From the NCBI GenBank assembly GCA_963773975.1, contig CAVZDJ010000036.1:3263-67262 (forward strand): DNA of 64,000 nucleotides, given 5' to 3'. The number at the start of each line of letters is the position of its first letter. Position 1 is the first letter of the stretch. Shown here piece after piece: positions 4,881 through 48,785 of the stretch. Under the pieces are notes generated by a model that worked only from the letters and a program-made list of their open reading frames with translations, searched no databases and was not told where the DNA came from. The translations under genes were made by a program, and so were the position numbers. This DNA comes from an uncultured delta proteobacterium. GTDB lineage: Bacteria; Desulfobacterota; Binatia; Binatales; Binataceae.

Positions 4881-4903
4881 GGAAAGGCGAGAGGAGGATT
4901 ATT

Positions 4904-5284
4904 ATGGCTACGAAGAAATCTTCCCAGGCGCGGAAGAAAAAGGCAGGCAAGAAGAAGCCTGTGGCGACCGTCGGGAATCTGGTAAATGACGCTATAAGGG
5001 ATCCAGATATCCGATCGGCGCTCTATAAAAATCCGCGAGTCGTTGCGAAACAGTACGGCTTGACGAGTGCGGAAGGGAAAGCAATGGAGGTCCTTAAGCG
5101 ATCCCTTCTATCCAGCCTGGATCGCAATCAGGTTAAGCAGCTGGAAGCGATCATTCGGTTGCCTGTCGCAGGATGGGGCGGTTGCAACCCATCGCAAGCC
5201 CCACCGTGTGGCCCGTCGACGACTTGCAACCCCACATGCTTACCGGCTTGTCTTCCCAATCCGTGCGCCCCGAGGACCCTCTAA
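4904..5284 (+). CDS. Putative RiPP precursor peptide: long leader, GG motif, and a 33-aa core with six Cys
   Basis: 126 aa with a GGAGG-containing stretch (gagaggagga) upstream. The leader contains …AIRDPDIRSALYKNPRVVAKQYGLT…, which is NHLP/Nif11-like in flavour. …PVAGWGG is followed by CNPSQAPPCGPSTTCNPTCLPACLPNPCAPRTL (nt 5183-5281). Confidence 0.6.
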   Translation: MATKKSSQARKKKAGKKKPVATVGNLVNDAIRDPDIRSALYKNPRVVAKQYGLTSAEGKAMEVLKRSLLSSLDRNQVKQLEAIIRLPVAGWGGCNPSQAPPCGPSTTCNPTCLPACLPNPCAPRTL

Positions 5285-5307
5285 TTTGGCTCGGCGGAGG
5301 TGTCGAT

Positions 5308-6234
5308 TTGAGTAAGTCAAAGGTAGTAGCAGGAACACGCTGTCGTTCTAACGCTGTCCAGAGCGATCCATCGTTCAAGGGCCTTAGTTTCCTTTGGCTG
5401 GAAATCACCCCTGGATGCAACCTGCATTGCCGGCATTGCTATACTGAGTCATCGCCTGCTCTTAGGAATCCGAGGATTGTCGATTGGGAGAAGGTACTGA
5501 CGGACGCATACCGCGCTGGTTGCAGACAGGTGCAATTCATCGGAGGAGAGCCGACGTACAACACTCCACTCCTTCAGTACATATCGACGGCCCGGAAACT
5601 TGGCTATACGTTCGTAGAAGTATACACAAACCTCACTCTTATCTCGGAGACCCTAGCTGATCAGTTGCGTAAGTATAGGGTGCAGCTTGCCACTTCATTC
5701 TATAGCCCCCGCAGGGAAGCCCATGAAGCGGTGACAGGAGTCAGGGGAAGCTTCGACAAGACGGTGAGCGGAATCCGGTGCGTGCTGCGAAAGAAGATTC
5801 CTTTGCGGGTTGGCGTCATTTCCCTGGAAACGAATAAGAATGAAGCCAGAGACTGCATCGAGTTCCTCGTTCGAATAGGCGTTGACAGAAATAACATCAG
5901 AATCGACCATACAAGGCCGGTGGGCAGAGGTGAAAATCTCGTAAAGCTCCAGAGCCTGGAAGAAACGTTATGTGGTCACTGTTGGGAGGGAAAATTGGCG
6001 GTCTCCTGGGATGGTACTTGTTATCCATGCGTTTTCTCAAGGGAGGTTACGGTTGGCACAGTTACTGCCAGCAACCTGGGCGAAGTTCTTCGCTCGGAGC
6101 GGCTGGAGCAATTTAGAAAACGCATATTCAATTACTCATCTCGTTTTGCCGTGAGAACGGGTGGGCAGGATCTGTTGGGCAGCCTTTTGGCGCTTTTTTC
6201 CGGCAACTCTGGCCACGAGAGCGGGCCGTCCTAA
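5308..6234 (+). CDS. Radical SAM enzyme with a C-terminal SPASM-type Cys cluster; peptide-modifying maturase candidate
   Basis: GCNLHCRHCY provides the CxxxCxxC motif, followed by GGEPT. The C-terminal CGHCWEGKLAVSWDGTCYPCVFS matches SPASM spacing. I prefer the TTG at 5308, which has GGAGG 7 nt upstream, over the track start at 5173, which overlaps the precursor. Confidence 0.85.
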   Translation: MSKSKVVAGTRCRSNAVQSDPSFKGLSFLWLEITPGCNLHCRHCYTESSPALRNPRIVDWEKVLTDAYRAGCRQVQFIGGEPTYNTPLLQYISTARKLGYTFVEVYTNLTLISETLADQLRKYRVQLATSFYSPRREAHEAVTGVRGSFDKTVSGIRCVLRKKIPLRVGVISLETNKNEARDCIEFLVRIGVDRNNIRIDHTRPVGRGENLVKLQSLEETLCGHCWEGKLAVSWDGTCYPCVFSREVTVGTVTASNLGEVLRSERLEQFRKRIFNYSSRFAVRTGGQDLLGSLLALFSGNSGHESGPS

Positions 6235-6981
6235 CCAGCCATTCAGCGGTACCTTCCGCTAGCGGAGAGTACGGGAGTCAGACCCGCTAGCCTCTTGCGA
6301 GAACTTGGGTTTAAGCAAGACGACTAGCAGACATGCTACCTTACCCTCCGGCCCACAAAGCTGCACCCTGAGGCAATCGATTCGGTACATTACTGAAAAC
6401 GTACACCGCGCTCCGAGTGAGCAATCGGGTAAGCGAGACCGGCGCGCCCGATCACAATCAACTTGGTAAACCTTCTTTTCAAAGATCAGGTTGTTCGTCG
6501 AATCTGTCACGGTTGTCCAACACCAAGGATGGAGTCGCGACCCGGATTCAACAGCCAAATACGCCCTCGTTGCGACATTTGAAATTCTCGGGCAGGAGAT
6601 ACCGATTTACGAATCGCTCCGCACCGCAGTTATCGAGTTGCAGCAGATTGAGGCAGGAGTAGAGGTCGAGGCGCAGGTGTGAGTTCGGCAATTGGCCCTA
6701 GCCATCCGCCACGCAGCCGCATCGACAGGCGGTCTGCGGTCCGAAAACGTTGACTTTCCCAGCCGTCCCCAATCGCGGCCCCGCGAGCGTCGTGGTGACC
6801 ATCGACCAGCCGCAGGTCGAGCATAGGGTCCGAATCAAAGACTTTGAAAACTGGCTCGACTCGGCAGGGAAGAGTCCCGCCGAGGTGGCGTTGAAAAGCC
6901 GTCTCCTGGATATTCTCGAACGCTAGACATCAGCGCGCCTTAGGGTTCCCTATGGAATGGTAAAATCGTCTTCTTGTCTTC

Positions 6982-8265
6982 TTAGAAGAAGACAAAGGCT
7001 CGGACCACGACGTTCTTGCGGCAGGGAGCGTCGTCGGGCGCGGTTGGGTCGATGCAGGCAGTGTGGAAAGACCAGCGCGAGACGGAACCGTCGGTGACAG
7101 AGTCGTAGCACTTGAGCATCGAGACCTCGGTCGGCTTCTGCTGGGGAAACCAGTACCACTCGTGGTCGGGGCGGTAGGTGAAGCGGGTGGTCTCGCCGAC
7201 GCGGTCGTCGTAGACGCGGTAGTTGGTGATGTACGGCTGGTCGGCGAAAGAGGGCCAGGCGCAGAGCACGAAGGGGTTCTGGCGCACCGTCTCCATCGGC
7301 TTGGCGAGGTTGATCGACACGAACCGCCGCGACATCTTCGCGTCGGCCTGCTCCTCCGTATAGTGCTGCTCGCGCCCGAAGTTCCGCAGGTTCTTGGTGA
7401 GCAGCTCGCGGCAGCGCACGCGGCCGCTGTTGTCGTTCAGGTCGTTGTGCACGATGTAGGCGTAGTTGGCGTTCACGCCCGGATTCTTGTTGTCCTGATC
7501 CTCTGTGCGGTCGCCCTTGTAGTCCTTGTCAAACACGTCGTGGTTGTACACGAGCGCATCCGTCGCGTCCGGGAAAAACTCCAAGAGGAGCTTCTCCATC
7601 TCCGGGTAGAACACGCGCTCCACCTCCGCCGCGTCGTAAAAGTTCCCGCACTTGGACTCGCAGTGCGCCAGCGCAACGCCAAGCTTGTCCATGCACTCGG
7701 GGCTGCTGGGCGAGAGACCTGGGTAGTACTCCTCCATTCGTCGCGCGTCGCGCAACAGCTGCGGAAAATAGAGGCATCGGCGCCCGATGTCCTGCTCTTC
7801 CTTGCGCAACGCCTTTGCCTCGGCCTCGCGCGCAGGGTCCCGCCAGAGCGCGTTGGACGAGACGATGGAGTAGGACGGTTGCTCGTACACGGTGTAGCGC
7901 AGCGGAACCGCTACGCCGCCTTCAGGGGCTTCGATGTTGTTGGCCCGAATATATTCCAGGCACTCTGAGTAGCTACGAAACCCGACGCCCCACTTGGTCT
8001 CGGATCGGGCCGGGGGGAGCGTTGTCGAGCAGGTCGCTAACCGCCTGTCCTTGCCCCTCGGCAAGCTGGTGGAGCGCCGCCTCCGTCGCTGCAGCAGTTC
8101 CCGCATCCCCGTCTCGATCGAACGACATGTAGGATAAACCGCCGTTCGCAGCGATGGGTGGCGGCTGCCCTTCCGTGAGTTGGAGGGGAGGCACATAGAC
8201 TGACGAAACACTCTCCGTAACCCCCGCAACGTGATTCTCGATGGAATTGAGCCGGTCCACAGCAT
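6982..8265 (-). CDS. CmcJ/NvfI-family oxygenase-like protein; the N-terminal third is probably in another frame
   Basis: The C-terminal two thirds (…YPEMEKLLLEFFPDATDALVYNHDVF…YAYIVHNDLN…RFTYRPDHEWYWFPQQKPTEVSMLKCYDS…VVVRAFVFF) resemble the CmcJ/AsaB/NvfI family. Upstream of about 7990 the more protein-like reading is the overlapping ORF 7973-8260 (MDRLNSIENHVAGVTESVS…), which suggests a frameshift. Confidence 0.6.
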   Translation of the reverse strand: MLWTGSIPSRITLRGLRRVFRQSMCLPSNSRKGSRHPSLRTAVYPTCRSIETGMRELLQRRRRRSTSLPRGKDRRLATCSTTLPPARSETKWGVGFRSYSECLEYIRANNIEAPEGGVAVPLRYTVYEQPSYSIVSSNALWRDPAREAEAKALRKEEQDIGRRCLYFPQLLRDARRMEEYYPGLSPSSPECMDKLGVALAHCESKCGNFYDAAEVERVFYPEMEKLLLEFFPDATDALVYNHDVFDKDYKGDRTEDQDNKNPGVNANYAYIVHNDLNDNSGRVRCRELLTKNLRNFGREQHYTEEQADAKMSRRFVSINLAKPMETVRQNPFVLCAWPSFADQPYITNYRVYDDRVGETTRFTYRPDHEWYWFPQQKPTEVSMLKCYDSVTDGSVSRWSFHTACIDPTAPDDAPCRKNVVVRAFVFF

Positions 8266-15232: not shown

Positions 15233-18200
15233 TCAACCGCTGTTATCTTTCACGATGCGGTATATCTGCTGCCCGTACCTCTCCACGGTCGTCATTCCAA
15301 TACCGGAAATGCCGAGTAGCTCGCGGGCTGTTCCTGGGCGTCTGCTGGCCATGGCTTTCAGTGCCCGGTCACTGAAGATGCGAAACGCCGGAACTCTGCG
15401 TCGTCGGGCCTCGGCCATTCGCCACTCACGCAGGGCCGCTTCGATACGGGAATCCGATCCAGCGTGTTGGGCCGATGACACGGGCTTTTGCCGGACTACC
15501 TTTTCCGATCGCTCCGAACGCTTCCGTTTCTCTGGCGTGGCGGCTCTCTTCTTGTTCTTGCCGGTTGCCGAGGCCGGCGCCAGATCTTTTATGATGAAAC
15601 CGATGGGAGTCTGTTCGTCGACCGAGTGAGCCGCGGGTGTGAGACTCACCTTGCGATACGGGATCTGCTTGCCATCTTTCTCGAACACGGCATCCGAAAG
15701 GCGCACCAGTCCGGCCCGCGCCATTGCGCCCAGGACTTCTTCGAAGGCGTCACGGCTCATCACACCGTTCGGACACAACTCGCCGTGAAGCTTGCCCGTT
15801 GATTTCGTATCGCCCGCGCGGAGGGCCGCGATTACACGGAACAGCGCAGTGCGTTCCGCCTCCGTGGCGGTCCGGAACCGTTGGGCGACACACTGCGCAG
15901 GAGCGCAAAAATCGCAGATCCCGCACGCCGTCTGTCCATCTGCAAGATCGCCAAAGTGGCGCACTAGCGTGGACATGCGGCACTGGTTGCTCTCGGCGTA
16001 CCGGATCACCAAGTCGATCTGCGCCCGCTTCTGCTTCCCGTGAGCGATGTACGACTTCCGCCACTGGGGCTGGCCGCAGCTGACGTTTTCGGCAAAGTCC
16101 ATCACGGCGCCCCCGTGGATCCATAGTTTTTCGAGAGCTTTGTCGAAGATGTCAGGTTTCATCCGCAGTCGCTTCTGCAGGGCTGTCTTCTCTTGAGGCT
16201 CAGAGCGGAGCTGGGCAAGAATCCCGTCCAATACCGCGACATCTGGGTAATCGCGTTCGAAGAAGAAATCGTGCGTGTAGCGATCGGCGTAGGAGTGCAT
16301 TAAGATTGCACGGCTTGGTCTTCCATCGCGCCCTGCTCGTCCGATCTCTTGGTAGTACGCCTCCAGGCTTCCCGGCAAGGCCGTATGGATAATGGTGCGG
16401 AGATCCGGCTTATCGATTCCCATGCCAAACGCAATCGTCGCGACCATGACTTCAATTCTGCCGACGAGGAATTCTTCCTGGACCCGCTCGCGATACTCGG
16501 CCTCGAGCCCAGCGTGATACGCCGCCGTGGCAAAGTGCCCGGCAAGTTCCGCAGCCAACGTATCCGCCTGCTTTCGAGTCGGCGTGTAGATGATGCCTGG
16601 CCTGCGGCCGGCATCGAGCAGTAATTCGCAGGCGAGCTCAGCTCGTCGGGACGGTGCAATCTCGAGCACCTCAATTGCGAGATTGGCGCGTCGAAACCCG
16701 TGAATGAAACGAGCCGGTTGGGCAAGTCCTAACTGTGCGCAGATATCGTCCTGAACGAGCGGGGTAGCTGTCGCGGTGAGTGCAATTACAACCGCCGGTC
16801 GCAACGATGGCAGATATTGACCGAGCATCCGGTAATCCGGCCGAAAGTCATGCCCCCACTGCGAGATGCAGTGGGCTTCATCGATAGCAATTAGTGACGG
16901 CTTGCGTTTCCCGAGCATCTCAGGGAAACCCGCCACGCGGAGTCGTTCCGGCGCGATGAACAGGAATTGTAGTTTGCCGTTGAGGTAATCCATGCAGGCC
17001 TGGCGGGAGGCTCCGCGGTTGCGGCCAGAATGAATACGGTCTACCGCGAATCCCCGCTCTTTGAGCTTGGCCACCTGATCTTCCATCAACGCGATGAGCG
17101 GACTGATCACGAGCGTTGTCCCTCCACGCGCGATCCCAGGCAACTGGTAGCACAGAGACTTGCCGGATCCAGTCGGCATAACCAGCAAGGCATCTTTGCC
17201 CTCAACCGCTGCCCGACAGACCGCTTCCTGGTTTGGACGAAACGAGGAAAATCCGAAGGCGTTCTGCAAGAGGCTCGGCAGCGAATCGCTCGTGAGTGGC
17301 GCTGCCGTATTGGCCGGTTCTGGCTGAATTTGGAGCCGTTGCGGATCTCCGACCGCGGCGGCCCCTACAGCCTTTGCAGCCGTAGCCGGTTTCCCGACTT
17401 TGCCCACGACCTGCCGCACGTAATTTTCGATGCCCTCAAGGAAAGGCTCCAGCGGCTCAGCCCCGCGCTGGATCCGCTTGAGGTGTGCTTCCCACTGGCC
17501 AGTCATGGCGGGACTCTTGACCTCGATATGCACAACTTCGATGAGCCGGATGCCCTTGTCGGTTGCCTCCAGGCTTTTTCCATTGCGCACGATGTAGCCG
17601 CGCTTGAGCAGCACCTCGATGATGGCCGCACGCGTCGCCGGAGTGCCGAGACCAGTCTCCTTCATGGCCTCCGAGAGTTCCTTCTCTTCAAGTGTCTTAC
17701 CAGCGGTCTCCATAGCCGTGAGTAGCGTCGCTTCCGTGAAGCGCTTGGGAGGCCGCGTGCTTTTCTTCACGGCGTTAATTTCGACCACTGTTTGAAGTTG
17801 GCCCTTTTGAAGATCCGGGGGTAAAGTCTCCGGGCGCCGCTGATCCTCCCTCCCGTCGTCGTCTTTTGTCGTGCTCTTCTCGGCCGAGCGCTCCAGCACT
17901 TTCCATCCGGCCTGTTCCACCGTGGTTCCTGAGGTGTGATAGCGGTCAACAATATCGCTGTTGGCGATGCTGGTGATCACGGTTGTAACCGACCAGATAT
18001 AATCATCGTGCCACGCACCAAGCAGGCGGCGGCAAATCAGATCGTAGATTTTGCGCTCGTCAGCGGATAAGGCGACCTTGTCGGGCGAGGTGGCGGTAGG
18101 AATGATCGCGTGATGATCGGTGACCTTTGCATCATCGATGAATCGTCGCCCCAGCGGGCGCTCGCCGGTACGCGGAGCCAAGTGCTCTCGATACGGTGCC

Positions 18201-19273
18201 TCGATCGCCTTCACAACTCCTGGTAACGTCTGACTCACATCTTGCGACAGGTACCGGCTGTCCGTGCGCGGGTAGCTGACGAGCTTGTGGCGTTCATACA
18301 GCGCCTGTGCGAGATCTAGTGTTTGTTGCGCACTGAATCCGAAAAGGCGGTTCGCATGCCGCTGTAACTCCGTGAGGTCGTACAACGGTAGCGGAGCCAT
18401 CCGCTGCGTTTCGGATTTGATCGATTCGACTGAGGCGCTACCGCTGTGCGCACGCTCGACGATGCGTTTTGCTTCTTCGCCATCGCTTGGCAGTCGCATA
18501 GCCTGTTGCAGCGACTCCTGTCCCGGTCCATCTTCCTGTCGCTTGCGAAACCAAGTGCCCGCATAGCTGTTATCTGTCCTGCTTTCGATCGGACAAAAGC
18601 TGGCCACAATTTCCAGATAATCCTCAGATACGAATTTCCGGATGGCGAGTTCCCGTTCGACTAGCATAGCTAGCGTCGGAGTCTGCACGCGCCCCACGGA
18701 GAGCTCCTCGCTATAGGCAAGGGAGTATGCACGCGACAGGTTCATCCCTACTAGCCAGTCGGCCCGGCTGCGTCCCCGTGCGGCAGCGGCCAGTGAATCG
18801 TAATCGCTACCGGGTCTCAGCCGCTCGAAACCCTTGCGGATAGCCTCGGGTGTAAGCGAGGAGATCCACAGCCGACTGACGGGTTTTTGGCATCGTGCGG
18901 CTTCATAGATGTAACGAAAGATCAACTCGCCCTCTCGGCCGGCGTCGGTGGCGCACACCAGGCGCGAAATTCGCGGCGAATCCAGGATCTTCTGTACGAC
19001 TTCGAACTGCTCTCTCGTCTTTTCGTACGAAACGAGTGGCCACTGCTTTGGCAGCATGGGCAGCATGTCACGCCGCCAAAAGCGCCATTCGGGGTTCATC
19101 TCGTGCGGCTGTGCGAGTGCAATCAGGTGGCCGAGGGCCCAGGTCACCACGTAGCCGTTGCCGTGCAGATATCCTTCACCTTTTTTTGCGGCGCCGACAA
19201 CACGCGCGATGTCGCGCGCGACTGAAGGCTTTTCGGCAAGTACCGCGATCGTGTCGGATTCTGGAAGCGCCAT
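15233..19273 (-). CDS. Fusion protein: type IA DNA topoisomerase (Topo III-like) N-terminal half plus a RecQ-family helicase with HRDC as the C-terminal half
   Basis: Topoisomerase part: TOPRIM [14 protein letters not shown] and [13 protein letters not shown], and the active-site region [12 protein letters not shown]. Helicase part: [55 protein letters not shown], the Zn cluster [12 protein letters not shown]…CGICDFC, and a C-terminal HRDC-like [17 protein letters not shown]…ISGIG. The start is taken at ATG 19273 (GGGAG 8 nt upstream), giving 1346 aa. The track start at 19669 adds 132 implausible residues. Confidence 0.9.
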   Translation of the reverse strand: [1346 protein letters not shown]

Positions 19274-19831
19274 CTTGAAACTCCCAGTTTTGCGATGCGG
19301 CAACTTCGGATGCAGCGCTGCAGGCTGGACGTTTGGCAAATACGTCAATGCCGAGCCGAACTTCGGAGTCGGGCGCCGGCTATAGTCGACCTCAAGTCCT
19401 GACAGACCATCACCTCCGACGACGTCGCGCCTCGGTTCCTTTGCGCTCTCGCCACTGCTATCGCGGTTAGGTGAAACCCGCAAGGTGGTGGGTTGCTCGA
19501 AACAAACCTGTACCCACAACCCACCGCCCCAGAGTGTTGACAACCGCAGACCAAGTCCGCCCGGTCCCACTTGAAGTGCACAGTTCCCAGCCGCTGGACC
19601 GAATGCGATGCACTGGTGGTGATTATGACGTCTCTCTGTCACTGCTGCGATTGCCAGTGGTTGCGCCACATCATAGCCGCGATCACGCCATGCCAGCGAA
19701 CTTGACGGCGAGCAACCCCATATGAGAATTCACTCGATCGAGCGTGGGCGAACGCGCCGCGGTGGAGTTCGAACGCCTCGACCTTCAGAGCTATGATGCG
19801 TCAGTCGACCCAGGCCAGAAATTCAGCGGCT

Positions 19832-20011
19832 TCACCGCGGCAGGACAGGCTCCAATCTTATCTTGCCTAAGGTCGAGCCAATACGGACGATTGCGGAGCA
19901 ATGTAGAGCGAACGACCCCTTGTAGGTCAATTTCGGCTCGGGCTCGCTGAGCCGAAGCTTCGGAAACCGGCGCAGCATCTCGCCGATCGCGATTGCTCCC
20001 TCGAGCCGCGC
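19832..20011 (-). pseudogene. Cytochrome P450 C-terminal remnant
   Basis: …ARLEGAIAIGEMLRRFPKLRLSEPEPKLTYKGSFAL matches the region just after the heme-ligand loop of P450s. No upstream P450 sequence or intact Cys-ligand motif is present. Confidence 0.45.
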
Positions 20012-20591
20012 GCCCTTTGGCGGCGATGGTGAACGAGGGGGGCGGTAGCCGTCAATCCATGAAATAACGAGCGATTGATCCATTTGATCGATCATCCTCA
20101 ACACCCGCCACAGCCGAGCAGTTTAGTCTCAAAATTCGTTCTTGGGGCCTGGACTTTTCAGCTCATCTGGACTTTTCGACTTTTGAGTACACTCCCAGTC
20201 CCGCTGTGGCGCGATGACGCTGCTGCTACATTGGCGTAGATTCGCGTCAGCTCCTTTCTTAGTCCCGGTGCCAACAGGTCCACGAAGATGCGGGAACGAG
20301 ATTGGGCTGGATACGGTTCTCGAAACCCTGAAACTCTATCGAAGCCGGAAACGACCCAATGTCGATGATCTGATGAAATTCGCTCGCGTCTGCGGCGTGG
20401 AAAGAGTGATGCGCCCCTATGTGGAAGCCGTGTTGTGACAAAGTCGGACAACAAAAACGTTGGCGCCTCAGTGCGGTAACGACCTCGTTCCGCTCGCCAT
20501 GGCGTTGTGACTCGATCCGGTGATGTGGGCTCGTGACGCTCCCGATTTTGGGGATGGCTCCTTGCGTCGAAAGTGGGTTTAATTAGCCGAA

Positions 20592-23500
20592 ATGGCAAAA
20601 ATGAATGCCGGGGGAGCAGCCGCAGCCGGGGGGTTCAGCGTTCAGGACCAAGTTGGCGCTGCGATTGCAGTGGAAATTTTGGCGGAGACTCAGAGTTCCG
20701 GGCGCTGGGACTTGCCGGCTAATACCGCCCTGCGCGAGCTTTGGTGTGAGACTCAGACTTCCGTTGATGACATCATCGTCCGGACTTCGGAAGACGGACA
20801 TTTATTCATTCAGGTAAAAAAGGGTCTCAAGCTGTCTAAGCAGAGCGGGTCACGCTTTGCGTCCGCATTGGACCAATGCGTTCGGCTCTTCATCGATAGT
20901 GAGTACGGGGGGGCCGATCTCAAACGCCGACTGAATCCTGATAAAGACAGGGTCGTCATCGTCACCGACGAAGACGCTTCCGCGTCCGTCAGAAAGCAGC
21001 TTCCTGATGCCCTGAAAAGATTGCGCGAGTCGCCGGCGGGAAATTTGGGGTTGGCTGCTAAAAGCAAAGCTGAGAAAGATGCGCTGGATACAGTAAGTCA
21101 GCTAGTTGACGGCGCGTGGAAGAAGCTCACCGGCAAAGTACCGTCGGACAAAGAACTCCGGAGTCTCCTCGGCCTGCTTCGCGTTGTGTGGCTCGACAGA
21201 GCCGGGTCCGAAACCGAGGCCAAGAGTTTGTTGGCCAGCACGGTTCTGACAGACCCAAGCCGCGCCGGCGACGCCTGGAATGCTCTGCTGAAAAGATGCC
21301 GGGAGTTGACCGAGACTCGCTCCGGTAGTGATGCATCCGGGCTGCAGAAAGTTCTTCTCGACACGGGACTGCCCCTGAAAGCGGTCCCGAGTTTCCGCGG
21401 AGACATCGGGCAGCTTCAAGATTTGACCGGTGAGAATCTGAGACTCCTGGAGCGTCATGCTTCGATCCGGATTGGCACAGATTTGCTGCCGGTTGCGCGG
21501 CGTGTGGTTGGAGAGCTTCGGCGCGTTGCGGAAGGGCAGTCGGTCCTTGTGGTGGGGGAGCCTGGCGGCGGCAAGTCTGGAGCAATTCATGACCTCGTCC
21601 ATCGGCTTCGCAAGGAGAATCGTGATGTGGTTCTCCTGGCAGCGGATCGCGTTGGCAGCCCCAGCCTACAGAGCCTTCGGACGGAACTGAGCCTCCAACA
21701 CGAGTTGGTTGATGTTCTGAAGAATTGGCCGGGGCCGCAACCGGGCTTTGTTGTCGTCGATGCGCTCGATGCCGCACGAAACGCGAGAGCATCTTGTGCA
21801 TTGCGCGAGCTGATCGAGCTTACGTTGCACGAGACGGGCCGCTGGCGAGTAGTGGCTTCGATCAGGAGCTTCGATTTGCAGTACGGGACGGAGTATCAGC
21901 GGCTCTTTCCGGCAACGGCGGTGGTGGAGGTCGAGGAGCAATTTCGTGCGGCGAAGTTCCATCGAACCAGCCACGTTAACGTACTGCCTTTCAGCGACAC
22001 AGAACTGCAGGAGATCGGAAAGCAATCGCCGGCGCTTGCTAATTTGATCGATTCAGCTCCGCCGGCCTTACGGAAGCTTCTGGCCGTTCCCTTCAATCTT
22101 GAACTTGCCGCCGAGCTGCTCACTGACGGACTGTCTGTCAAAGACCTGACCGGTATCTCCTCTCAGCTCGAGCTGCTCGACGGCTACTGGCATCAGCGGG
22201 TGATTTTGAACCGCGGTGTCAATGACGGCCAGGGCGACGGGCGTCAGGACGTGCTTCGACGTTCATGTCAGGAAATGGTAAGGACCCGCTCTCTTCGAGT
22301 GGGCCGAAGCACGATCGGGGACGCGACCAACAGTCAAGCGTTGAACGAAGTGTTGAGCGCTGGCGTGCTCAACGATGATCCAAGGCGCTTTACTTTGTCG
22401 TTCTCTCACCACACGCTTTTCGATTACGCGACCGCCCGGCTGGTTCTGACTTCTTCGGCTTCCGGCCTGGCCAGTCAGCTCGCTGGCGACGCCGAGCTTG
22501 CGTTGATTATCCGTCCCAGTCTCGGCTTCCACTTCCATCGCATCTGGGGTTTAGACTCCGCGCGAGAGGAGTTTTGGAAGACGGTCTTCGCCATCCTTCG
22601 GGAAGAGAAAGTTCCGGAGATTGGCAAGCTGATAGGGCCGTCTGTAGCCGCCGATCAGACGGATGCGATTGCGGAACTTGCGCTCCTCTGTAACGCGCTG
22701 GCCGAGTCCGACGAGAACGCCCGCCGGTCGGCTGAGGAGGCCCTTAATCATTTGGTCGGCGCGTTGGCGAACGCGCCATCCAGTCCGCAGGAGCTTGCGG
22801 GGCCCGAGGCTGGTCCTTGGTGCTACCTCGCAGAGCGAGTCAGCGAGAAGCTCACCGATCGCTCGGCGTACGCACTGGCTTCGCTGTTTTCCCTGCTGAA
22901 CGAACAAAGCGGTTCCTTTATGGCGGAGCAAAGAGTCGCAGCAGGCAAGGCAGCGCGCCGCCTTTTTGAGTTCGCCTGGAGCCTGTCACGTTACGACCGT
23001 TGGCTGATAATTCGGAGTATTCAGTCGGTCTGCCGAACTTTCGCGAGTGACGCGGATTCGTCGCGTGGACTTTTGCGGCGACTGATCGAGCCGGAACGGC
23101 TGAGCCAGCATGGTTTTGAGGAGCTACCTTGGCTAGCGCGAGAAGTCACCGGTCTTGTTCCGGCCGATCCGAATCTCGTTGAAGAAATTTATCAGTCCGC
23201 TTTCACCCATCCACTACCGGAGGAGGAAAAAACCGAATTCCTTCCAAGCCGCATACTGGGTCTAGTGTCTAATAAGCGGCAGGACTTCGAACACGGGTTG
23301 TGGCAATTGGCGGAATGCTTTCCGACTTTCCTCGACCCGGCCCCGCTTCAAGCAATTCGCGCGTTGATCTCGGCACTGGAGAAGTACGTCGAGCAGCACC
23401 ATCCAACGTTTTCTGGTGAGGTCGTTGAACGAACGTTCGCGTTCGATGGGGTCACGGCGCGAATTTGGCCCGACCTAAGCCATTCCTGGGACATCGGAAC

Positions 23501-25547
23501 CCTGTACGTTCAGGACAACCCAGTCCGAATGCTTGATGCCCTCACTAGCCACTTGAGCAAGCTGGCCGCAAACGAAGAAAAGATGTCAGAACTGGCGCAT
23601 ATAGTCGACATTATTGCTCGCGAAAACAGGATGGCCGTGGTTTGGCGTCGTCTTTTGGGTTCAGCCGTGCAGTTCACCGATACGTTGGGCGTGCTAGTCA
23701 AACCGCTCCTTTGGGCCACGCCGATCATAACAGAATCCGATACTACGAGGGCTGCGGGAGAACTTCTAAAGGTTATCTTTGCGAAGCTGTCGGCTGAGGA
23801 TCGAGAGCGAATTGAGCAAGTAATCCTGGCTATTCCGGCAGAGGCTCCGCCGAAGCAGAAGGAAGCCTCGGAATATTGGCGTAACAGGTTGTTGGGCTGC
23901 CTAGAAGCCGCGGCATTGGTTACAAGCGAGGCAAAGGAAACTCTCAAAGGCCTGGGGGTCGCTGGCACACTTCCGGCAAACGAGCCGCTTGTCCGGATTG
24001 GGCCGGGAGAAGTTGGGGCTTTTTCGGAATCGGATTTTCTACGGATGAAAGGAGTGTCAGTTGACGATGAGGCGAACCGGAAGATCCTGAGCTTAGAGGA
24101 ACCGGTTAAGGCATTTGCTCAACGCTACGCCAATAGTGTGCCCGAGCTTGCTGAAAGCGAGACCGTCCTTTCTGCTCTTAAGGCGTTGCGATCAGGGCTC
24201 GATGAGGCAGAGGGTGCTGATCCAAAACAGCGTGATTACGTATGGGGCGTCCTCGCTCGGGCCTGCGCCTGCATCGCGAGCCAAAAGGGGCTTTCATCTG
24301 CATTGGGTGCGTTTGTCCGTGAAACGCTTTTGAAAGCGGCCGAATGTGTTGAGCCCGAGTACGTGCCTGAACAGGAGGAGCAATTCCAGCGCGGCCCCGC
24401 GTGGGGGAGTGCAGCTCGCATCGAAGCCGCAGCTGGGTTGATGACGCTGGCGCGGGATACTGGTTTCGCGGACGCTGACGTTCTCGGCTGCATCGAGCGG
24501 CTCGAAGAAGAGCCTGTATCCTCTGTGCGTTACCAAATCGCATGCCGGCTGGCATTCCTCAATCAGACGACGCCCGAACTGATGTGGAAGCTTCTGGAGC
24601 GGGAGTGCAGCGAAGAGAAGAACTGGGGGGTACTTCAAGGCACGCTCAGTACACTGCGCAGCATTGCGGGGCCAAACGCCGACCGCGTTGCCAGCCTGAC
24701 AAAGGAGGTCCTTGCACGCATTCAAGAAGGTCCGCGTGGTGGGCGACCTGTTGAGGAACTTTGCCTCTCCATACTCACAGGGTTGTACATTTGGCAGGAG
24801 AACACCAGTTGTCGCGAGATAATCGAGGGAATTATTGCCCAGCCGACGAAGTTCCCCGACCAGATCTCCATTATTCTGCTGAACTTGCGGGAAGCACTGA
24901 GTTACGGACCATCGCAGCCCGAAGATCCAAAAGCTGAAGCTGTTCGACGACGAAGCATCGAGTTGGTAGTGCGTATTCTGGAAACGGCTCGCTCAGGGAT
25001 TCATCAATTCGAAAGTGACCACGTCGGAAGGCCTGAACAATCATGGTCGGAAGACGAAAAAAAGACCGCACAGGCCCTCGGCAAGGTCATGAACGTGGTC
25101 GCGGAACAGGTCTTCTTCGCATCGGGAGCCCTTGCGCTTCGGCTGCCATCCAATGCTCAACGACCGGGCCTTACACAAGAACAGAGAGCGCGGTTCTTCA
25201 AGGAAACAAGTCAGCTTATCGACCAGCTCACCCTGCTCGGCTTTTCGAGCACCGTGCACCACGTGCTGCAAACGCTTGAGTCGTTTGTGGAGTTCGACGC
25301 GGCGGGAGTTTTTCTTAACATCGGTCGAACTCTAAAAACTGCCGCGCCGTATGGTTATCAGTTCGAGCAACTTGCGGCCGATGTCTTCGTGCGGCTCGTC
25401 GAGCTTTATCTCGCCGACCATCGGGAAATATTCGAACAGCGAGCCGACTGTCGCAACGCGCTCATTGAAACGCTCGACATCTTCGTGAAAGTGGGTTGGC
25501 CCAACGCCCGTCGTCTGACCTACCGGCTCGAGGAACTTTTCCGTTGA
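20592..25547 (+). CDS. Large multidomain protein: Cap4/DUF4297-like PD-(D/E)xK nuclease N-terminus, P-loop NTPase, and about 1100 aa of helical (HEAT/ARM/TPR-like) repeats; NLR/Avs-like defence candidate
   Basis: The N-terminus reads GGFSVQDQVGAAIAVEIL … WCETQTSVDDIIVRTSEDGHLFIQVKKG, an E..DD..QxK pattern (nt about 20748-20819). Walker A is VLVVGEPGGGKSG (nt about 21555-21578). Walker B is GFVVVDALDAARN (nt about 21747-21770), followed by RWRVVASIRSFD. The remainder is leucine-rich and helical. Total length is 1651 aa. Confidence 0.85.
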   Translation: MAKMNAGGAAAAGGFSVQDQVGAAIAVEILAETQSSGRWDLPANTALRELWCETQTSVDDIIVRTSEDGHLFIQVKKGLKLSKQSGSRFASALDQCVRLFIDSEYGGADLKRRLNPDKDRVVIVTDEDASASVRKQLPDALKRLRESPAGNLGLAAKSKAEKDALDTVSQLVDGAWKKLTGKVPSDKELRSLLGLLRVVWLDRAGSETEAKSLLASTVLTDPSRAGDAWNALLKRCRELTETRSGSDASGLQKVLLDTGLPLKAVPSFRGDIGQLQDLTGENLRLLERHASIRIGTDLLPVARRVVGELRRVAEGQSVLVVGEPGGGKSGAIHDLVHRLRKENRDVVLLAADRVGSPSLQSLRTELSLQHELVDVLKNWPGPQPGFVVVDALDAARNARASCALRELIELTLHETGRWRVVASIRSFDLQYGTEYQRLFPATAVVEVEEQFRAAKFHRTSHVNVLPFSDTELQEIGKQSPALANLIDSAPPALRKLLAVPFNLELAAELLTDGLSVKDLTGISSQLELLDGYWHQRVILNRGVNDGQGDGRQDVLRRSCQEMVRTRSLRVGRSTIGDATNSQALNEVLSAGVLNDDPRRFTLSFSHHTLFDYATARLVLTSSASGLASQLAGDAELALIIRPSLGFHFHRIWGLDSAREEFWKTVFAILREEKVPEIGKLIGPSVAADQTDAIAELALLCNALAESDENARRSAEEALNHLVGALANAPSSPQELAGPEAGPWCYLAERVSEKLTDRSAYALASLFSLLNEQSGSFMAEQRVAAGKAARRLFEFAWSLSRYDRWLIIRSIQSVCRTFASDADSSRGLLRRLIEPERLSQHGFEELPWLAREVTGLVPADPNLVEEIYQSAFTHPLPEEEKTEFLPSRILGLVSNKRQDFEHGLWQLAECFPTFLDPAPLQAIRALISALEKYVEQHHPTFSGEVVERTFAFDGVTARIWPDLSHSWDIGTLYVQDNPVRMLDALTSHLSKLAANEEKMSELAHIVDIIARENRMAVVWRRLLGSAVQFTDTLGVLVKPLLWATPIITESDTTRAAGELLKVIFAKLSAEDRERIEQVILAIPAEAPPKQKEASEYWRNRLLGCLEAAALVTSEAKETLKGLGVAGTLPANEPLVRIGPGEVGAFSESDFLRMKGVSVDDEANRKILSLEEPVKAFAQRYANSVPELAESETVLSALKALRSGLDEAEGADPKQRDYVWGVLARACACIASQKGLSSALGAFVRETLLKAAECVEPEYVPEQEEQFQRGPAWGSAARIEAAAGLMTLARDTGFADADVLGCIERLEEEPVSSVRYQIACRLAFLNQTTPELMWKLLERECSEEKNWGVLQGTLSTLRSIAGPNADRVASLTKEVLARIQEGPRGGRPVEELCLSILTGLYIWQENTSCREIIEGIIAQPTKFPDQISIILLNLREALSYGPSQPEDPKAEAVRRRSIELVVRILETARSGIHQFESDHVGRPEQSWSEDEKKTAQALGKVMNVVAEQVFFASGALALRLPSNAQRPGLTQEQRARFFKETSQLIDQLTLLGFSSTVHHVLQTLESFVEFDAAGVFLNIGRTLKTAAPYGYQFEQLAADVFVRLVELYLADHREIFEQRADCRNALIETLDIFVKVGWPNARRLTYRLEELFR

Positions 25548-25783
25548 GTCGGGTCAACAATGCTACCGACTTTCTGACGAAGCTGAAGGAGCTACGGGAT
25601 CGATATGATACCGTGCACCGGCCTCAGGTCGAGCGTGTACGGAAGCGCTATGCAGACAATCCAGGTCTCACGGAACCTGCTTGGCCGCGGCGGGGTCAGC
25701 GCAGTCGCGGTCGAGTTCCATGGCCGCCGCTACGTGCTGGTGCCTCAGACCTGAGACTGAGTGGCGGAGAGAAGGGGATTTGA
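25544..25783 (+). CDS. Small ORF translationally coupled to the 1651-aa gene; the 3' end is ambiguous
   Basis: A TTG at 25544 overlaps the TGA stop of the upstream gene in a TTGA junction. The product begins SRVNNATDFLTKLKELRDRYDTVHRPQVERVRKRYADNPGLT. The track frame then becomes Arg/Pro-rich and runs into the repeat copy. An alternative frame gives a more natural end, …LLGRGGVSAVAVEFHGRRYVLVPQT, with a stop at about 25752. A frameshift is therefore possible. Confidence 0.3.
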   Translation: MSRVNNATDFLTKLKELRDRYDTVHRPQVERVRKRYADNPGLTEPAWPRRGQRSRGRVPWPPLRAGASDLRLSGGEKGI

Positions 25784-25796
25784 ACTCCCGAGACCC
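25755..25796 (-). repeat. tRNA-3'-end-like dispersed repeat, copy 4 (tRNA-Ser-like variant)
   Basis: The reverse complement reads GGGTCTCGGGAGTTCAAATCCCCTTCTCTCCGCCACTCAGTC. This gives a T-loop TTCAAAT, a 3' T-stem CCCCT, an acceptor strand TCTCTCC, discriminator G and CCA. No 5' tRNA half is present upstream. It aligns with copy 5 at about 30 of 42 positions. Confidence 0.75.
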
Positions 25797-35997: not shown

Positions 35998-38900
35998 CTA
36001 GTTGCTCAACTCGTCGAGCAGCGCCTTGGCGTCCTTGAGGTCGGCGGTGTCGAAGCCCTCGGTGAACCAGCCGTAGATTTCGGCCAGCATCGTGTGCGCT
36101 TCGTCGCGGCGGCCCTGTTTCGCCAGCAGACGGGCGAGACGTGTAGTGGCACCCAGCTCGAAAGATTTTGCGCTTTGGCTTTGCGCGATCCGAATCGCGG
36201 TGCGAAAGCTTTGCTCAGCCTCCACGTCGCTGCCCTGGATGCGCGTCAACTCCCCCTTTAGTGAATAGAGCTGTGCCTCTTGGAAGCGTTCTCCACGGTT
36301 TTCTACAAGCGCGAGCGCCTCCGCCAATACCTTAGCACCCTTTTCCCTTTGGCCACTTCTTAGGCGCGCCTCCAACAATTCGGCAAGAAACTGTGTCATG
36401 TACCCAATTGCGCCCGCGGCCTTCCAACCAGCGATGCCCTCAAGCATTCCGGCGATTCCCGCTTCCTCCTTGCCCAGCCTCACCAAGGCATAGCCGCGAC
36501 CGATTGTTACTGCCGCCGACCAAGATGGAAAGCCCCGCTCACGCGAGAGCGCTATCACGTCCGCAAGCTTCAGCCCCGCCTGCGCTTCGCCACGCCAAGT
36601 GTGGACCCAGCTAGCGAATCCCGAGGCATATATGAGGCTGGTAGGATGAGCTACCTCCCTAGCCAGGGTCAGTGCCTCACTGATCTTCTCAAGGGCCTGA
36701 TCCGGATAGCCTGATTCCCATAAGACCCAAGAGGCAATGGAGCGGGCTGACACCCCGGCTTCCATTCCGATCCCGGAGAGGAAACGACGCTGCTGTTGGG
36801 AATTGTAGAGCGCGATACTTGCTCAAGGTGCGCGCGGGCTGGAACAAGCTCACCGAGAAAATACAAAGCTGTTCCCAATCCGTAGTGGGCTTCCAGAATG
36901 AGGCCCGGATCGCCGGTGCTGTCTGCCAATCGCACAAGCTGTTCTCCCAGCTCACGGCTCGTCTGTAATTCTCCATGCAACATGTAGAAGTAACGGAGCC
37001 CCGCCAGTACCGGGAAAAGCTGTGGGGTTTCCCCAATCTGGCGACATAGCGCTAGCGCCCGCTGGTAAGCCGCTCCAGTTTCCGGTGCCCCAAAGCCTTT
37101 GATAGCGAGCAACGAAGGGCCCATCGTTACCTGCAGCGCGAGTTCTTGTTGAGCGCGCTCCGGTACATCCGGCAACGTCGCCAGCAGGTCCACTCCTCTG
37201 GAGAGATGGCTGACTGCCTCCAGATGCGCGGAACGGCGACTCGCCAGCTGCCCTGCCTGCAGCCAGTATGGGACGGCATGCGCGACGAGGCCGGCTTCGG
37301 TGTAGTGACGAGCCAGCAGTTCCGGCTGAGTCTCTTTTATCTCCGGAAATCGCTCCGCCAGCGTTTGCGCGATGTGCTTGTGATATTGCTGGCGGGTGCT
37401 TCTGAGTAATGACTGGTAGGCCGCATCCTGAATTAACGCGTGTCGAAAGATGTATCGCGCCTGCGGCAACAGCCCACGCTGATGGAGGATTTCGGATTCG
37501 ACCAGCTTCTTGAGCGCCTCCTGGAGAGCTGTCGCATCCAACGACGCGACCGCCTGCAGCAACTCATAGGAGAACTCCCGCCCAAGAGCAGCCGCGAGTT
37601 GCGCGACTTCCTTGGCGGCACCCAACCTGTCGAGGCGGGCCATCAACGAGTCGTTTAGCGACGACGGAATCGTCAGCGCGTTCCGCGGGCTCGTTAGTTC
37701 GTAGTGCCCGTCGTGCTCCCGCAGCAGTCCCGATTCCATGACCGCTCTGGTCAACTCCTCGACGAACAGTGGTACGCCGTCGGTTTTGCTTAAGACCTCC
37801 TGCATCACCTGGACGGGCAATCCCTTTCCGCCCGTCATCCGCTGCACCATCGTCTCCACCTCTCGTTGTCCAAGGTGAGCGAGCATCAGGTGGGCGATAT
37901 GCGAGCGCGGTGGCCAGGGAGGCCGAAAGTCCGGACGAAAAGTAAACACGGCGAGCAGTCGCGTAGCGGGCACCTGATCGAGCAGGAGTGGATAGCATTC
38001 CAGACTGGAGGGATCGGCCCAGTGCAAATCCTCCCAGACGTAGTACACGGGCGCCTTTTCCGCCTCTTCGATGGTCCACGCCACCAAGGCTGCTCGCGTT
38101 TTCTCCTTCTGCTTCTGCGGACTCAGGTTGGGTGGAGCGGAATTGACGGGAAGCGGCAACGAGAGCAACGAGGCCATCAGCGGGAGCGTATCAGGCTCGG
38201 TGAAGTGGTAGCTTGCAAGCATCCGGGCGAGTTTGTCCAGCTTCGATTCTGCGGGCTCTTCGCGCTGAAACCCCAACAGCCGCTGCAAGTGATCGATGAT
38301 CGGATAGAAGGCGCTGTTCCGATGATAAGGAGAGCAGCGAAATTCAATCCGTGTCGCACCCTCCGTCAGCGCTTCTTGCCCGAGCGTTTGCACCAGCCTG
38401 GACTTGCCGATTCCCGGCTCCCCACTGAGTAGCACCACCTGGCCTTTACCTTGCCTGGCGTCTTGCCATCGCTCGCGCAGCATGCCCAATTCGTGCTCGC
38501 GCCCGACCAGCGGCGTCAGCCCGGTCTTGACAGCGACTTCGAAGCGGCTCTGCGCCTCGCTCTCCCACACGACCCGATACAAAAACGATGGGCTGGAGAT
38601 GCCTTTGAGCGTTCGCTGCCCCAGGTCCTCGCATTCGAACAGGCCGGCCACCAGGCGGTAGGTCGCAGGGCTGATGACCACACTGTCGGGCATCGCCTGC
38701 TCCTGCAGCCGGGCCGCGAAATTGGGCGTCTCCCCTACTATCGCGTGGTGTTCCGGATAGTCTCCGCTGCCCATCTCGCCTGCGACCACCAGCCCGGTGT
38801 GGATACCGACACGGACGTGGATCGGATGGGGCAATTGCGCGCCCCGTAGTTTCTCGACGATGGCTAGGCCAGCCCGCGCCGCGCGGGCGGCATCATCTTC

Positions 38901-39338
38901 GTGCGCGGCCGGATAGCCGAAGTACGCCAGTAATCCATCGCCGAGATATTGGGCAACGTAGCCATCGAAGGAGGTGATCGCGCGGACGCAGACCTCCTGG
39001 TACGAGCGCATCAGCTCGCGCAGTTCCTCGGGGTCTAGTTGCTCCGAGAGCGGAATTGAGCCGACCACGTCACAGAACATCACCGTCAGCTGGCGCCGCT
39101 CGCCCTCGGGCACTTCGCGTGGTTTGTCGTGTTCGACCACGACGGGTGCGGCTGCGGGCTCGGCTGACCGTGGAGCGGCCGTTGATTGGGAGAGATTGGC
39201 GCCGCAATCGCCGCAAAATTTCTGGCCGGCAGGATTCTCGACACCGCACCTCGCACAGCGGTTGCCAAGCGGCGACCCGCAGTCACCGCAGAACCGTTTG
39301 CTGTCTGGATTCTCAGAGCCGCAGCTGGTGCAACGCAT
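35998..39338 (-). CDS. Double zinc-ribbon plus class III adenylate/guanylate cyclase plus AAA/STAND ATPase plus TPR protein; one frameshift near 36820
   Basis: The N-terminus MRCTSCGSENPDSKRFCGDCGSPLGNRCARCGVENPAGQKFCGDCG forms two zinc ribbons. The cyclase domain reads RRQLTVMFCDVVGS…YLGDGLLAYFGYP…GIHTGLVVAGEMG…GETPNFAARL. The P-loop is VVLLSGEPGIGKSRLV. The TPR-like C-terminus continues in ORF 35998-36765, with …HLEQ / ASIALYNSQQQRRFLSGIGMEAGV… at the junction. Confidence 0.85.
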
Positions 39339-48617: not shown

Positions 48618-48785
48618 ATGAAAAAGCAGCGGACAGAGAGAGCGAAACCGGATCAAGCGAGGGCGACGGTGCGGATGGACCGCGACGTGTGGGCCGCCGC
48701 GCGCCACGCCGCGCTCGACCGAGGCGTCTCCTTCGGGAAGCTCGTCGAGGATGCGCTGCGGGCGTACCTGGGGGTGAAGTCATGA
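48618..48785 (+). CDS. Ribbon-helix-helix (CopG-like) protein
   Basis: The ATG at 48618 is preceded by GAGGTGAT. …ATVRMDRDVWAAARHAALDRGVSFGKLVEDALRAYL is an RHH pattern. The stop overlaps the integrase start in an ATGA junction. Confidence 0.65.
   Translation: MKKQRTERAKPDQARATVRMDRDVWAAARHAALDRGVSFGKLVEDALRAYLGVKS

Follow-up and report, generated by a model that had tools for sequence, protein, structure and literature searches.

The 64,000-nucleotide stretch of contig CAVZDJ010000036.1 from an uncultured delta proteobacterium (assembly GCA_963773975.1; the whole stretch is called the window below) carries on its forward strand an intact gene of the PDC-M54A family of PADLOC, directly followed by the remnant of a gene for the partner protein PDC-M54B. 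The open reading frame (ORF) of 1651 codons at 20592..25547 (+) is present with its ATG start as given in a preliminary description made from the sequence alone. The two proteins are called M54A and M54B in what follows. The features of the locus are given by window position or by M54A residue (aa).

20592..25547, + strand: PDC-M54A gene, intact, 1651 aa (ORF with ATG start; PADLOC PDLC04700)
20592..21461, + strand: predicted Cap4-type PD-(D/E)xK nuclease domain with helical subdomain, aa 1-290 (AlphaFold2 model and Foldseek)
Within it, + strand: candidate catalytic residues E32 (helix 1), E53 (20748-20750), D59/D60 (20766-20771) and Q74-x-K76 (20811-20819) (conservation)
21462..22691, + strand: predicted NACHT-like nucleoside triphosphatase (NTPase) of the STAND class (signal transduction ATPases with numerous domains), with nucleotide-binding domain (NBD), helical and winged-helix subdomains, aa ~291-700 (AlphaFold2 and Foldseek)
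21555-21578, + strand: Walker A, GEPGGGKS (sequence)
21747-21770, + strand: Walker B, FVVVDALD (sequence)
aa 419-425, + strand: sensor-1-like strand, RVVASIR (sequence)
aa 606, + strand: conserved His606 within SFSHHTLFDY (26-sequence alignment)
22692..25544, + strand: conserved C-terminal region of ~950 aa, aa 701-1651, presumed sensor or partner-docking domain (conservation)
25544..25678, + strand: 5' stub of PDC-M54B, 45 codons, with a TTG start that overlaps the TGA stop of M54A by 4 nt (tblastn and hidden Markov model, HMM)

The window protein is a member of the PDC-M54A family. It matches the profile PDLC04700 from aa 6 to aa 1651, over profile positions 2-1657 of 1657 (1635.6 bits), and a second PDC-M54A profile, PDLC04702, with 1170 bits; the earlier opinion that it could not be placed in a named family, and might be an undescribed variant, gives way to this full-length match. 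The 'M' in PDC-M54 stands for multi-gene. The idea of a single-gene system falls as well, since the family is a two-gene candidate in PADLOC, the closest relatives carry an overlapping M54B and the window itself keeps the first 45 codons of one. The PDC-M54 system definition calls for an adjacent M54B match, of which the window offers HMM positions 2-41. The name PDC covers 145 untested candidates for phage defence, which were predicted from their embedding in BREX, DISARM or type I restriction-modification (RM) loci (Payne et al., bioRxiv 10.1101/2024.01.29.577857). What the window holds is a partner-less, half-decayed member of a catalogued candidate family, not an undescribed system. In the literature that could be searched, neither PDC-M54 nor any accession of a cultured member is mentioned, and no published domain analysis came to light; Pfam and NCBIfam gave the window protein P-loop matches below threshold and nothing significant.

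The sequence motifs that had first drawn attention to the protein are all at their reported residues, namely GGFSVQ (13-18), E53, D59-D60 and Q74-V75-K76 in the N-terminal domain, and GEPGGGKS (322-329), FVVVDALD (386-393) and RWRVVASIR (417-425) in the NTPase module. In an alignment of 26 sequences from different phyla, E53, D59, D60, K76, G325, G327, K328, S329, D390, D393, S423, R425 and H606 are invariant, and the same nuclease and NTPase residues are at least 90% conserved in a 69-sequence alignment. One database search returned 275 M54A homologues at E<=1e-5, from many phyla and mostly of 1630-1690 aa; the nearest are 85% and 80% identical to the window protein, and the bulk share 37-47% identity over 99-100% of the length. 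The family extends to Thermus, Acidobacteriota, Proteobacteria, Actinomycetota, Bacteroidota, Planctomycetota and others. With these 275 homologues and the 2077 representatives of the C-terminal region described below, conservation of the motif pattern lies far beyond chance. The ratio of nonsynonymous to synonymous substitution rates (dN/dS) between the window M54A and its 80%-identical relative (locus L036) is 0.23, a value indicative of purifying selection.

AlphaFold2 models of aa 1-300 and aa 281-700 were built on 69-sequence alignments. The model of the N-terminal segment (predicted local distance difference test, pLDDT, 89.9; predicted template modelling score, pTM, 0.85) has an alpha-beta-beta-beta-alpha-beta core, in which E53 ends beta1, D59/D60 precede beta2 and Q74/K76 lie on beta3; the alignments show E53, D59, D60 and K76 as invariant, with at least 90% conservation of Q74 and E32. 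The top 20 Foldseek matches in the PDB are all HamA, LmuA, Avs3 or Cap4 (probability 1.00, E 8.5e-6 to 5e-3, query TM-score, TMq, 0.39-0.48), the best being HamA 8zue (E 8.5e-6), LmuA 9hr5 (1.6e-5), Avs3 8dgc (1.8e-4) and Cap4 6wam/7yib/6vm6 (~3e-4). At the sequence level, the PADLOC HamA/DUF1837 profile gives a weak match to aa 4-78 (E 0.0016); the N-terminus has no Pfam match in the window protein or in the 26 members, no PDB sequence match and no match to a DUF4297/Cap4 profile. The original assignment to Cap4/DUF4297-type nucleases thus holds at the level of the predicted fold, all 20 top matches being of the Cap4 family, and the N-terminus is modelled as a Cap4-type PD-(D/E)xK nuclease that has kept its putative catalytic residues.

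The model of aa 281-700 (pLDDT 94.4, pTM 0.91) resembles NLRs (nucleotide-binding leucine-rich repeat receptors). The best Foldseek matches are NLRC4 (4kxf; E 3e-9, TMq 0.64) and the NACHT module of NLRP3 (TMq 0.54-0.61), and they cover the NBD, the helical domain HD1, the winged-helix domain (WHD) and the second helical domain HD2. Further matches, to Avs4 (8dgf), NLRP9/14 and MalT (8bob), ranked above ORC/Cdc6 and RFC clamp loaders (TMq ~0.3-0.35). At the sequence level, no Pfam NACHT, NB-ARC or nSTAND profile reaches its gathering score in the window protein, whose sub-threshold matches are to NPHP3_N (17.0 vs 24.8) and AAA_16 (15.8 vs 32.6), and among the 26 members the weak matches are to NPHP3_N (21/26), nSTAND3 (8/26) and NACHT (6/26). 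The D-A-L-D-A of Walker B, the 'ASIR' strand, which resembles 'TSR', and the winged-helix His in SFSHHTLFDY are features that we take to be NACHT-like. An SRP-like, ABC-like or classical AAA class for this NTPase was rejected on the fold matches to STAND and NACHT proteins. With the matches to NLRC4, NLRP3, Avs4 and MalT, and with the motifs and invariant residues in place, the proposal of a STAND NTPase is borne out by the model, and aa ~291-700 are predicted to form a NACHT-like STAND NTPase.

The preliminary description had rightly perceived the order of effector, NTPase and large helical C-terminus. It had further counted some 1100 residues of Leu-rich helical repeats, of which the large helical C-terminus stands and the rest does not: the tail measures ~950 aa, because the helical and winged-helix subdomains take the NTPase module as far as about aa 700, its Leu content is 12%, and self-BLAST detects no internal sequence repeats. 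Weak HEAT or HEAT_2 matches occur in the tails of 4/26 members, and TPR matches in 0/26. Many residues of the tail are invariant in the 26-sequence alignment, up to the very C-terminus. An exhaustive search with this region (50% clustering) yielded 2077 representatives at E<=1e-3; at E<=1e-30 the number was 986. Because in full-length proteins the region always starts at about residue 700-735, the architecture of M54A is fixed, with no swapping of effectors on the same sensor.

The partner gene was identified in the relatives. In all, 43 distinct loci were compared, namely the window and 42 others (35 genome loci and 7 further distinct loci). De novo clustering of the ORFs that flank the 35 homologous genome loci produced one recurrent neighbour family, an ORF of ~470-550 aa directly downstream of M54A on the same strand, which PADLOC identifies as PDC-M54B. 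M54B overlaps the end of M54A in L036, which encodes a 493-aa protein, in Thermus tengchongensis, in L040 and L041, and on a Rhizobium conjugative plasmid; both closest relatives of the window protein (85% and 80% identity) keep it. The two genes are likewise adjacent in Poribacteria (locus tags 2664/2665) and under adjacent Thermus accessions, and the M54B family, with 192 matches, mirrors that of M54A. Both genes also occur in Thermus scotoductus (ADW21447/ADW21446) and in Rhizobium rosettiformans p2 (WP_203021132/WP_203021130). In the clade of the window, M54A and M54B normally form a translationally coupled pair, judging from the overlaps.

M54B has no significant Pfam, NCBIfam or PDB relative. 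Its alignment contains an invariant motif, E61...D76...E92-x-K94 (P0121 numbering), and an invariant set of Cys and His residues (C367, H370, H405, C406, C440, C450, C451, C454, C460 and C470); the protein, of ~500 aa, thus carries a PD-(D/E)xK-like motif and a C-terminal domain resembling a Cys/His metal cluster. That its nuclease-like domain might be a duplicate of the Cap4 domain of M54A was rejected (hhalign probability 0.1%). Its probable role is that of a second effector or of a co-sensor, docked on the invariant C-terminus of M54A. Other downstream ORFs of ~500-560 aa in distant loci were considered as divergent M54B proteins and rejected, being HsdS, GajA, a methyltransferase, an Avs3a-like fragment or without match. 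In L036 (8826-9919), L037 and L038, two small genes (219 aa, and 144 aa with a hydrophobic stretch) that belong to no Pfam family lie directly upstream of M54A; neither is present in the window, Thermus, L040 or L041, and they could be accessory genes specific to that lineage.

In the window, M54B is deleted after codon 45, because the homology to L036 stops there and the M54B profile finds positions 2-41 only (E 4e-7). DNA homology between the window and L036 extends from about 20550-20569 to 25678-25683, that is, over M54A and the first 45 codons of M54B, and the two sequences are unrelated beyond; at base level, the breakpoint of M54B homology lies at 25678/25679. The stub is 93% identical in amino acids to residues 1-45 of the 493-aa L036 protein (tblastn), and M54B was found nowhere else in the window. 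As for the age of the event, the stub differs from L036 by 12 substitutions, with proportions of nonsynonymous (pN) and synonymous (pS) differences of 0.05 and 0.20, a ratio of ~0.25 that, for a small sample, equals the dN/dS of M54A. Since the stub thus diverged under apparent constraint, the sequences suggest that the deletion is young compared with the divergence from L036. Another decaying copy was seen in a Verrucomicrobiae genome (L016, 13924-15146), where M54B is split into two reading frames and the M54A match is shorter.

The absence of a partner is common in the family, M54B being present in 11/43 distinct loci. In a neighbour-joining tree of 38 M54A proteins, loci with and without M54B are interspersed: the clade of the window includes four with it (L036, L041, L039 and L040) and three without (L042, L043 and L017), and an alphaproteobacterial clade lacks it uniformly. 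The M54B profile found no remnant of the gene in L042 or L043. By this distribution, M54B has been lost repeatedly and full-length M54A has persisted, which argues that M54A can be self-sufficient, unproven as this is for the window copy.

The settings of the homologues are those of defence or mobile elements, as had been anticipated. Inside type I RM systems, the place between hsdM and hsdS is taken by the pair in L039 (Thermus) and L040 and by a solo M54A in L017. M54A and M54B adjoin DUF1156/SNF2 genes and a type IV secretion system (T4SS) in L036 and SNF2, methyltransferase and Eco57I genes in L041, and Gabija GajA is found downstream of M54A in L022. Toxin-antitoxin (TA) modules, integrases and insertion sequence (IS) elements flank M54A in L042 and in the plasmid loci L044 and L045. 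An M54A homologue is carried by 13 plasmids, of which 7 are conjugative, and by 0 of 50,697 phage records. The solo M54A of L042 is bracketed by two identical-looking pairs of genes (4856-7320 and 17231-19695), each an IS66 transposase and a DruA-domain gene; the bracket holds HigB and ParE TA modules and has the look of a composite transposon.

The surroundings of M54A in the window comprise the following further features.

1664-2860: rve-family IS transposase
5173-6234, + strand: radical SAM/SPASM protein, with weak PADLOC pVip (viperin) matches (49.5 bits)
15233-19273, - strand: Toprim-TopoIA-RecQ-HRDC fusion, ~1350 aa from the likely start MALPESD (domains Toprim, topoisomerase IA, RecQ-like DEAD/Helicase_C/RecQ_Zn and HRDC)
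19832-20104, - strand: possible P450 C-terminal remnant (21/22 weak PDB matches are to P450 L-helix regions, E 0.025-1.3)
20214-20438, + strand: 74-aa ORF ending ...RKRPNVDDLMKFARVCGVERVMRPYVEAVL, with no detectable relative
25762-25796, - strand: tRNA 3'-half-like fragment with T-arm, acceptor strand and CCA, the acceptor being Ser-like (direct reading)
36669-39338, - strand: 889-aa STAND-like protein with a double zinc ribbon, an adenylate/guanylate cyclase domain and AAA_16 (PADLOC PycC domain-level matches up to 67 bits)
44435-46408: Prim-Pol
48689-49942: tyrosine integrase

From position 1 to ~50 kb, the GC content of the window is 54-61% (62.5% in one 2-kb interval), and this part contains the IS transposase, assorted metabolic genes, the topoisomerase-helicase fusion, M54A, the cyclase-AAA_16 protein, Prim-Pol and the tyrosine integrase. 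Beyond ~50 kb, the GC content is 63-69% and core genes follow (HldE-like, MurJ, HemN and MetK). Because of this step, and because the core genes begin after Prim-Pol and the integrase, the first ~50 kb look like one large integrated island that holds M54A; there is no tRNA gene at the junction. PADLOC reports no other complete defence system in the window, and an eroded integrated island fits the region better than the defence island first supposed. The 889-aa cyclase-AAA_16 protein is probably a signalling regulator rather than Pycsar, and the pVip match at 5173-6234 is probably generic radical-SAM similarity.

The spacer of ~1.3 kb that separates the fusion gene from M54A is debris, and it includes the putative P450 remnant, an element proposed from the outset that the PDB matches support weakly. 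On the other side of M54A, the tRNA-like fragment lies 84 nt past the breakpoint of the M54B deletion; it is unique in the window and matched by 0/100 shuffles. Under permissive settings Rfam gives one motif match, which reads as the antisense of the 3' end of tRNA-Ser; ARAGORN and Rfam searches at gathering thresholds found no complete tRNA and no Rfam family in the window, and no second copy that would form an attachment (att) repeat was found there. The "tRNA-3'-like repeat" of the first reading is thus real as a sequence, in minus sense, and is a single fragment instead of a repeat or a complete tRNA. It is probably an att-site or tRNA remnant; if a relic att site, it may be connected with the loss of M54B.

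The locus is best read, with a probability of roughly 0.6, as an intact PDC-M54A receptor of NLR-like type, built like Avs3 and Avs7 and orphaned by the deletion of M54B within an eroded island of ~50 kb. The data themselves establish the ORF and its place in the family, the predicted folds of two modules, the conservation of catalytic and NTPase residues, the truncated partner and the genomic settings. The trigger, oligomerisation, nuclease activity and any defence phenotype of M54A are what we infer by analogy with the solved structures of Avs3, Avs4 and Avs7 and of NLRC4/NLRP3, and the role of M54B is inferred as well. By this analogy, resting M54A would be a closed, autoinhibited monomer with a nucleotide in its NACHT-like module. 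A trigger would engage the ~950-aa C-terminal helical region, upon which the NTPase would swap its nucleotide and M54A would oligomerise. The N-terminal Cap4-type PD-(D/E)xK domains would then join into an active nuclease, whose degradation of DNA would abort the infection or the invading element. The window copy may still act as a single-gene system.

Several points weigh against this interpretation. The window copy lacks its partner, and as the deletion may be recent, an intact M54A ORF need not mean that the protein functions alone. The tail is unusually conserved for a sensor of phage proteins, with 37-47% identity across phyla, which is more in keeping with a conserved ligand or partner than with a phage target that evolves fast. 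Unlike that of many Avs families, the architecture is fixed, without swapping of effectors; together, these properties would also admit a conserved ligand or a DNA state as the trigger. Some 25-40 nt of native sequence are left upstream of M54A, and the promoter and terminator scan did not rise above shuffled expectation, so that no promoter-like signal stands out. The window is devoid of any further complete defence system by PADLOC, and PDC-M54 is itself a prediction, explicitly counted among 145 untested candidates for phage defence (Payne et al., bioRxiv 10.1101/2024.01.29.577857).

The strongest rival, which we hold to be distinctly less likely though far from negligible, is that the window holds a non-functional relic: PDC-M54 would need both proteins, and M54A would be drifting toward a pseudogene, intact only because the deletion is recent. 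M54B is indeed cut to 45 codons, both closest relatives (85% and 80%) keep it, the substitutions in the stub look constrained (pN 0.05, pS 0.20) and imply a late loss, the flanks are debris (the tRNA half and the possible P450 remnant) and almost no native upstream sequence is left. Set against this are the integrity of the M54A ORF over 1651 codons with all family-invariant residues, the presence in M54A of an effector domain of its own, and the frequency of solo full-length M54A, which is phylogenetically scattered and includes the copy embedded in type I RM in L017 and one entirely solo alphaproteobacterial clade.

A more speculative proposal, to which we give limited credence, takes PDC-M54 as a new two-component branch of NLR immunity in bacteria. 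The conserved HEAT-like tail would dock M54B, a PD-(D/E)xK nuclease-like protein whose Cys/His cluster may be of a metal or Fe-S-like kind, and would read no variable phage protein. M54B would sense the state of the DNA or redox conditions, or be a second nuclease; the clade-scattered loss of M54B would then be a switch between a guarded two-gene and an autonomous one-gene form. If so, the window would be a freshly caught example of that loss.

It is improbable, on the present balance, that the family is not mainly directed against phages and serves instead in the competition or maintenance of mobile elements (plasmid exclusion, exclusion of integrative and conjugative elements, or addiction), or in the surveillance of DNA damage or DNA structure through binding of a host or DNA-associated ligand by the tail. 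The 13 plasmid copies (7 on conjugative plasmids) and the 0 in 50,697 phage records, the T4SS genes that L036 adjoins, the TA modules and integrases that are frequent neighbours, the strong conservation of the tail and the fixed architecture would all suit such a role, as would the fact that the nearest nuclease folds include HamA and LmuA, whose systems sense DNA states rather than phage proteins. The repeated embedding between hsdM and hsdS is, however, a classic position of anti-phage modules such as PrrC, and anti-phage Avs proteins are the only ones known to date that combine STAND with Cap4. Finally, a joint nuclease/NTPase and topoisomerase-helicase system formed by M54A and the Toprim-TopoIA-RecQ-HRDC fusion is effectively refuted: the genes do lie side by side in divergent orientation, PADLOC profiles 'DpdF' (1690 bits) and 'PsyrT' (362 bits) match the fusion and Cap4-like nucleases pair with helicases in Hachiman, but by tblastn none of the 35 genome loci has a relative of the topoisomerase-helicase within 10 kb, the gene tables of L036 and L039-L045 have none, ~1.3 kb of debris lies between the two genes and the block common with the closest relative starts ~25-40 nt upstream of M54A. 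The fusion pointed out earlier is thus a real gene and, being absent from the other 42 homologous loci (the 7 further ones included), not a meaningful neighbour, and it was rejected as a partner of M54A; PADLOC scans of 20 other window ORFs gave no match to a Dpd protein that would place it in a Dpd system.

With the intact, orphaned M54A receptor as the preferred reading, the window copy is of lower value than the family, being one more member and partly decayed. The family is large, with ~2000 representatives of the C-terminal region (50% clustering), and it recurs in type I RM operons. The analysis supplies an anatomy for it, namely a predicted Cap4 nuclease, a NACHT-like STAND module, a conserved tail and, in the partner, another nuclease-like motif and a Cys/His cluster. 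Key residues for mutation are E53, D59, K76 and K328 in M54A and E61, D76, E92 and K94 (P0121 numbering) in M54B, and close natural relatives with both genes or with M54A alone allow a direct comparison of the partner's role.

Among known systems, the window locus is closest to the PDC-M54 candidate itself, which it matches end to end in M54A, whose members have M54B directly downstream with overlapping stop and start codons, and which is embedded in type I RM loci, the criterion by which the PDCs were defined; it differs in that its M54B is cut to a 45-codon stub, leaving the two-gene system incomplete. Avs3 and Avs7 (Gao et al., 2022, PDB 8dgc; Lee et al., 2026, PMC13581612) are antiviral STAND proteins that begin with a Cap4 nuclease; Lee et al. 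distinguish 589 STAND clades and 684 sensor clusters. M54A has in common with them a Cap4-type nuclease, a STAND NTPase and a large alpha-helical C-terminal domain, in the same order and in a single polypeptide; the N-terminal domain of Avs3 ranks with the top fold matches of its nuclease and Avs4 with those of its NTPase, and a trigger-induced oligomerisation that assembles the Cap4 nuclease would be the expected common mechanism. The differences are that no Avs profile (Avs1-5 in PADLOC) matches the window protein at E<=1, that the sensor of M54A gives HEAT-like rather than TPR signals, is strongly conserved across phyla and belongs to a fixed architecture, and that Avs proteins are single-gene systems whereas M54A usually comes with a conserved second gene, M54B. 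The NACHT NLRs (NLRC4, NLRP3 and bNACHT) provide the best structural matches for aa 281-700, but the Pfam NACHT profile is reached below threshold and in 6/26 members, M54A has no leucine-rich repeats, and its predicted effector is a nuclease, not CARD, PYD or TIR. Hachiman HamA and Lamassu LmuA, in turn, are the top two fold matches of the N-terminus, to which the weak HamA/DUF1837 match over the catalytic region may be added; there, the nuclease is a protein by itself, under the control of the helicase HamB or the SMC-like LmuB, whereas in M54A, which has neither HamB nor LmuB adjacent to it, the nuclease is fused to a STAND NTPase.

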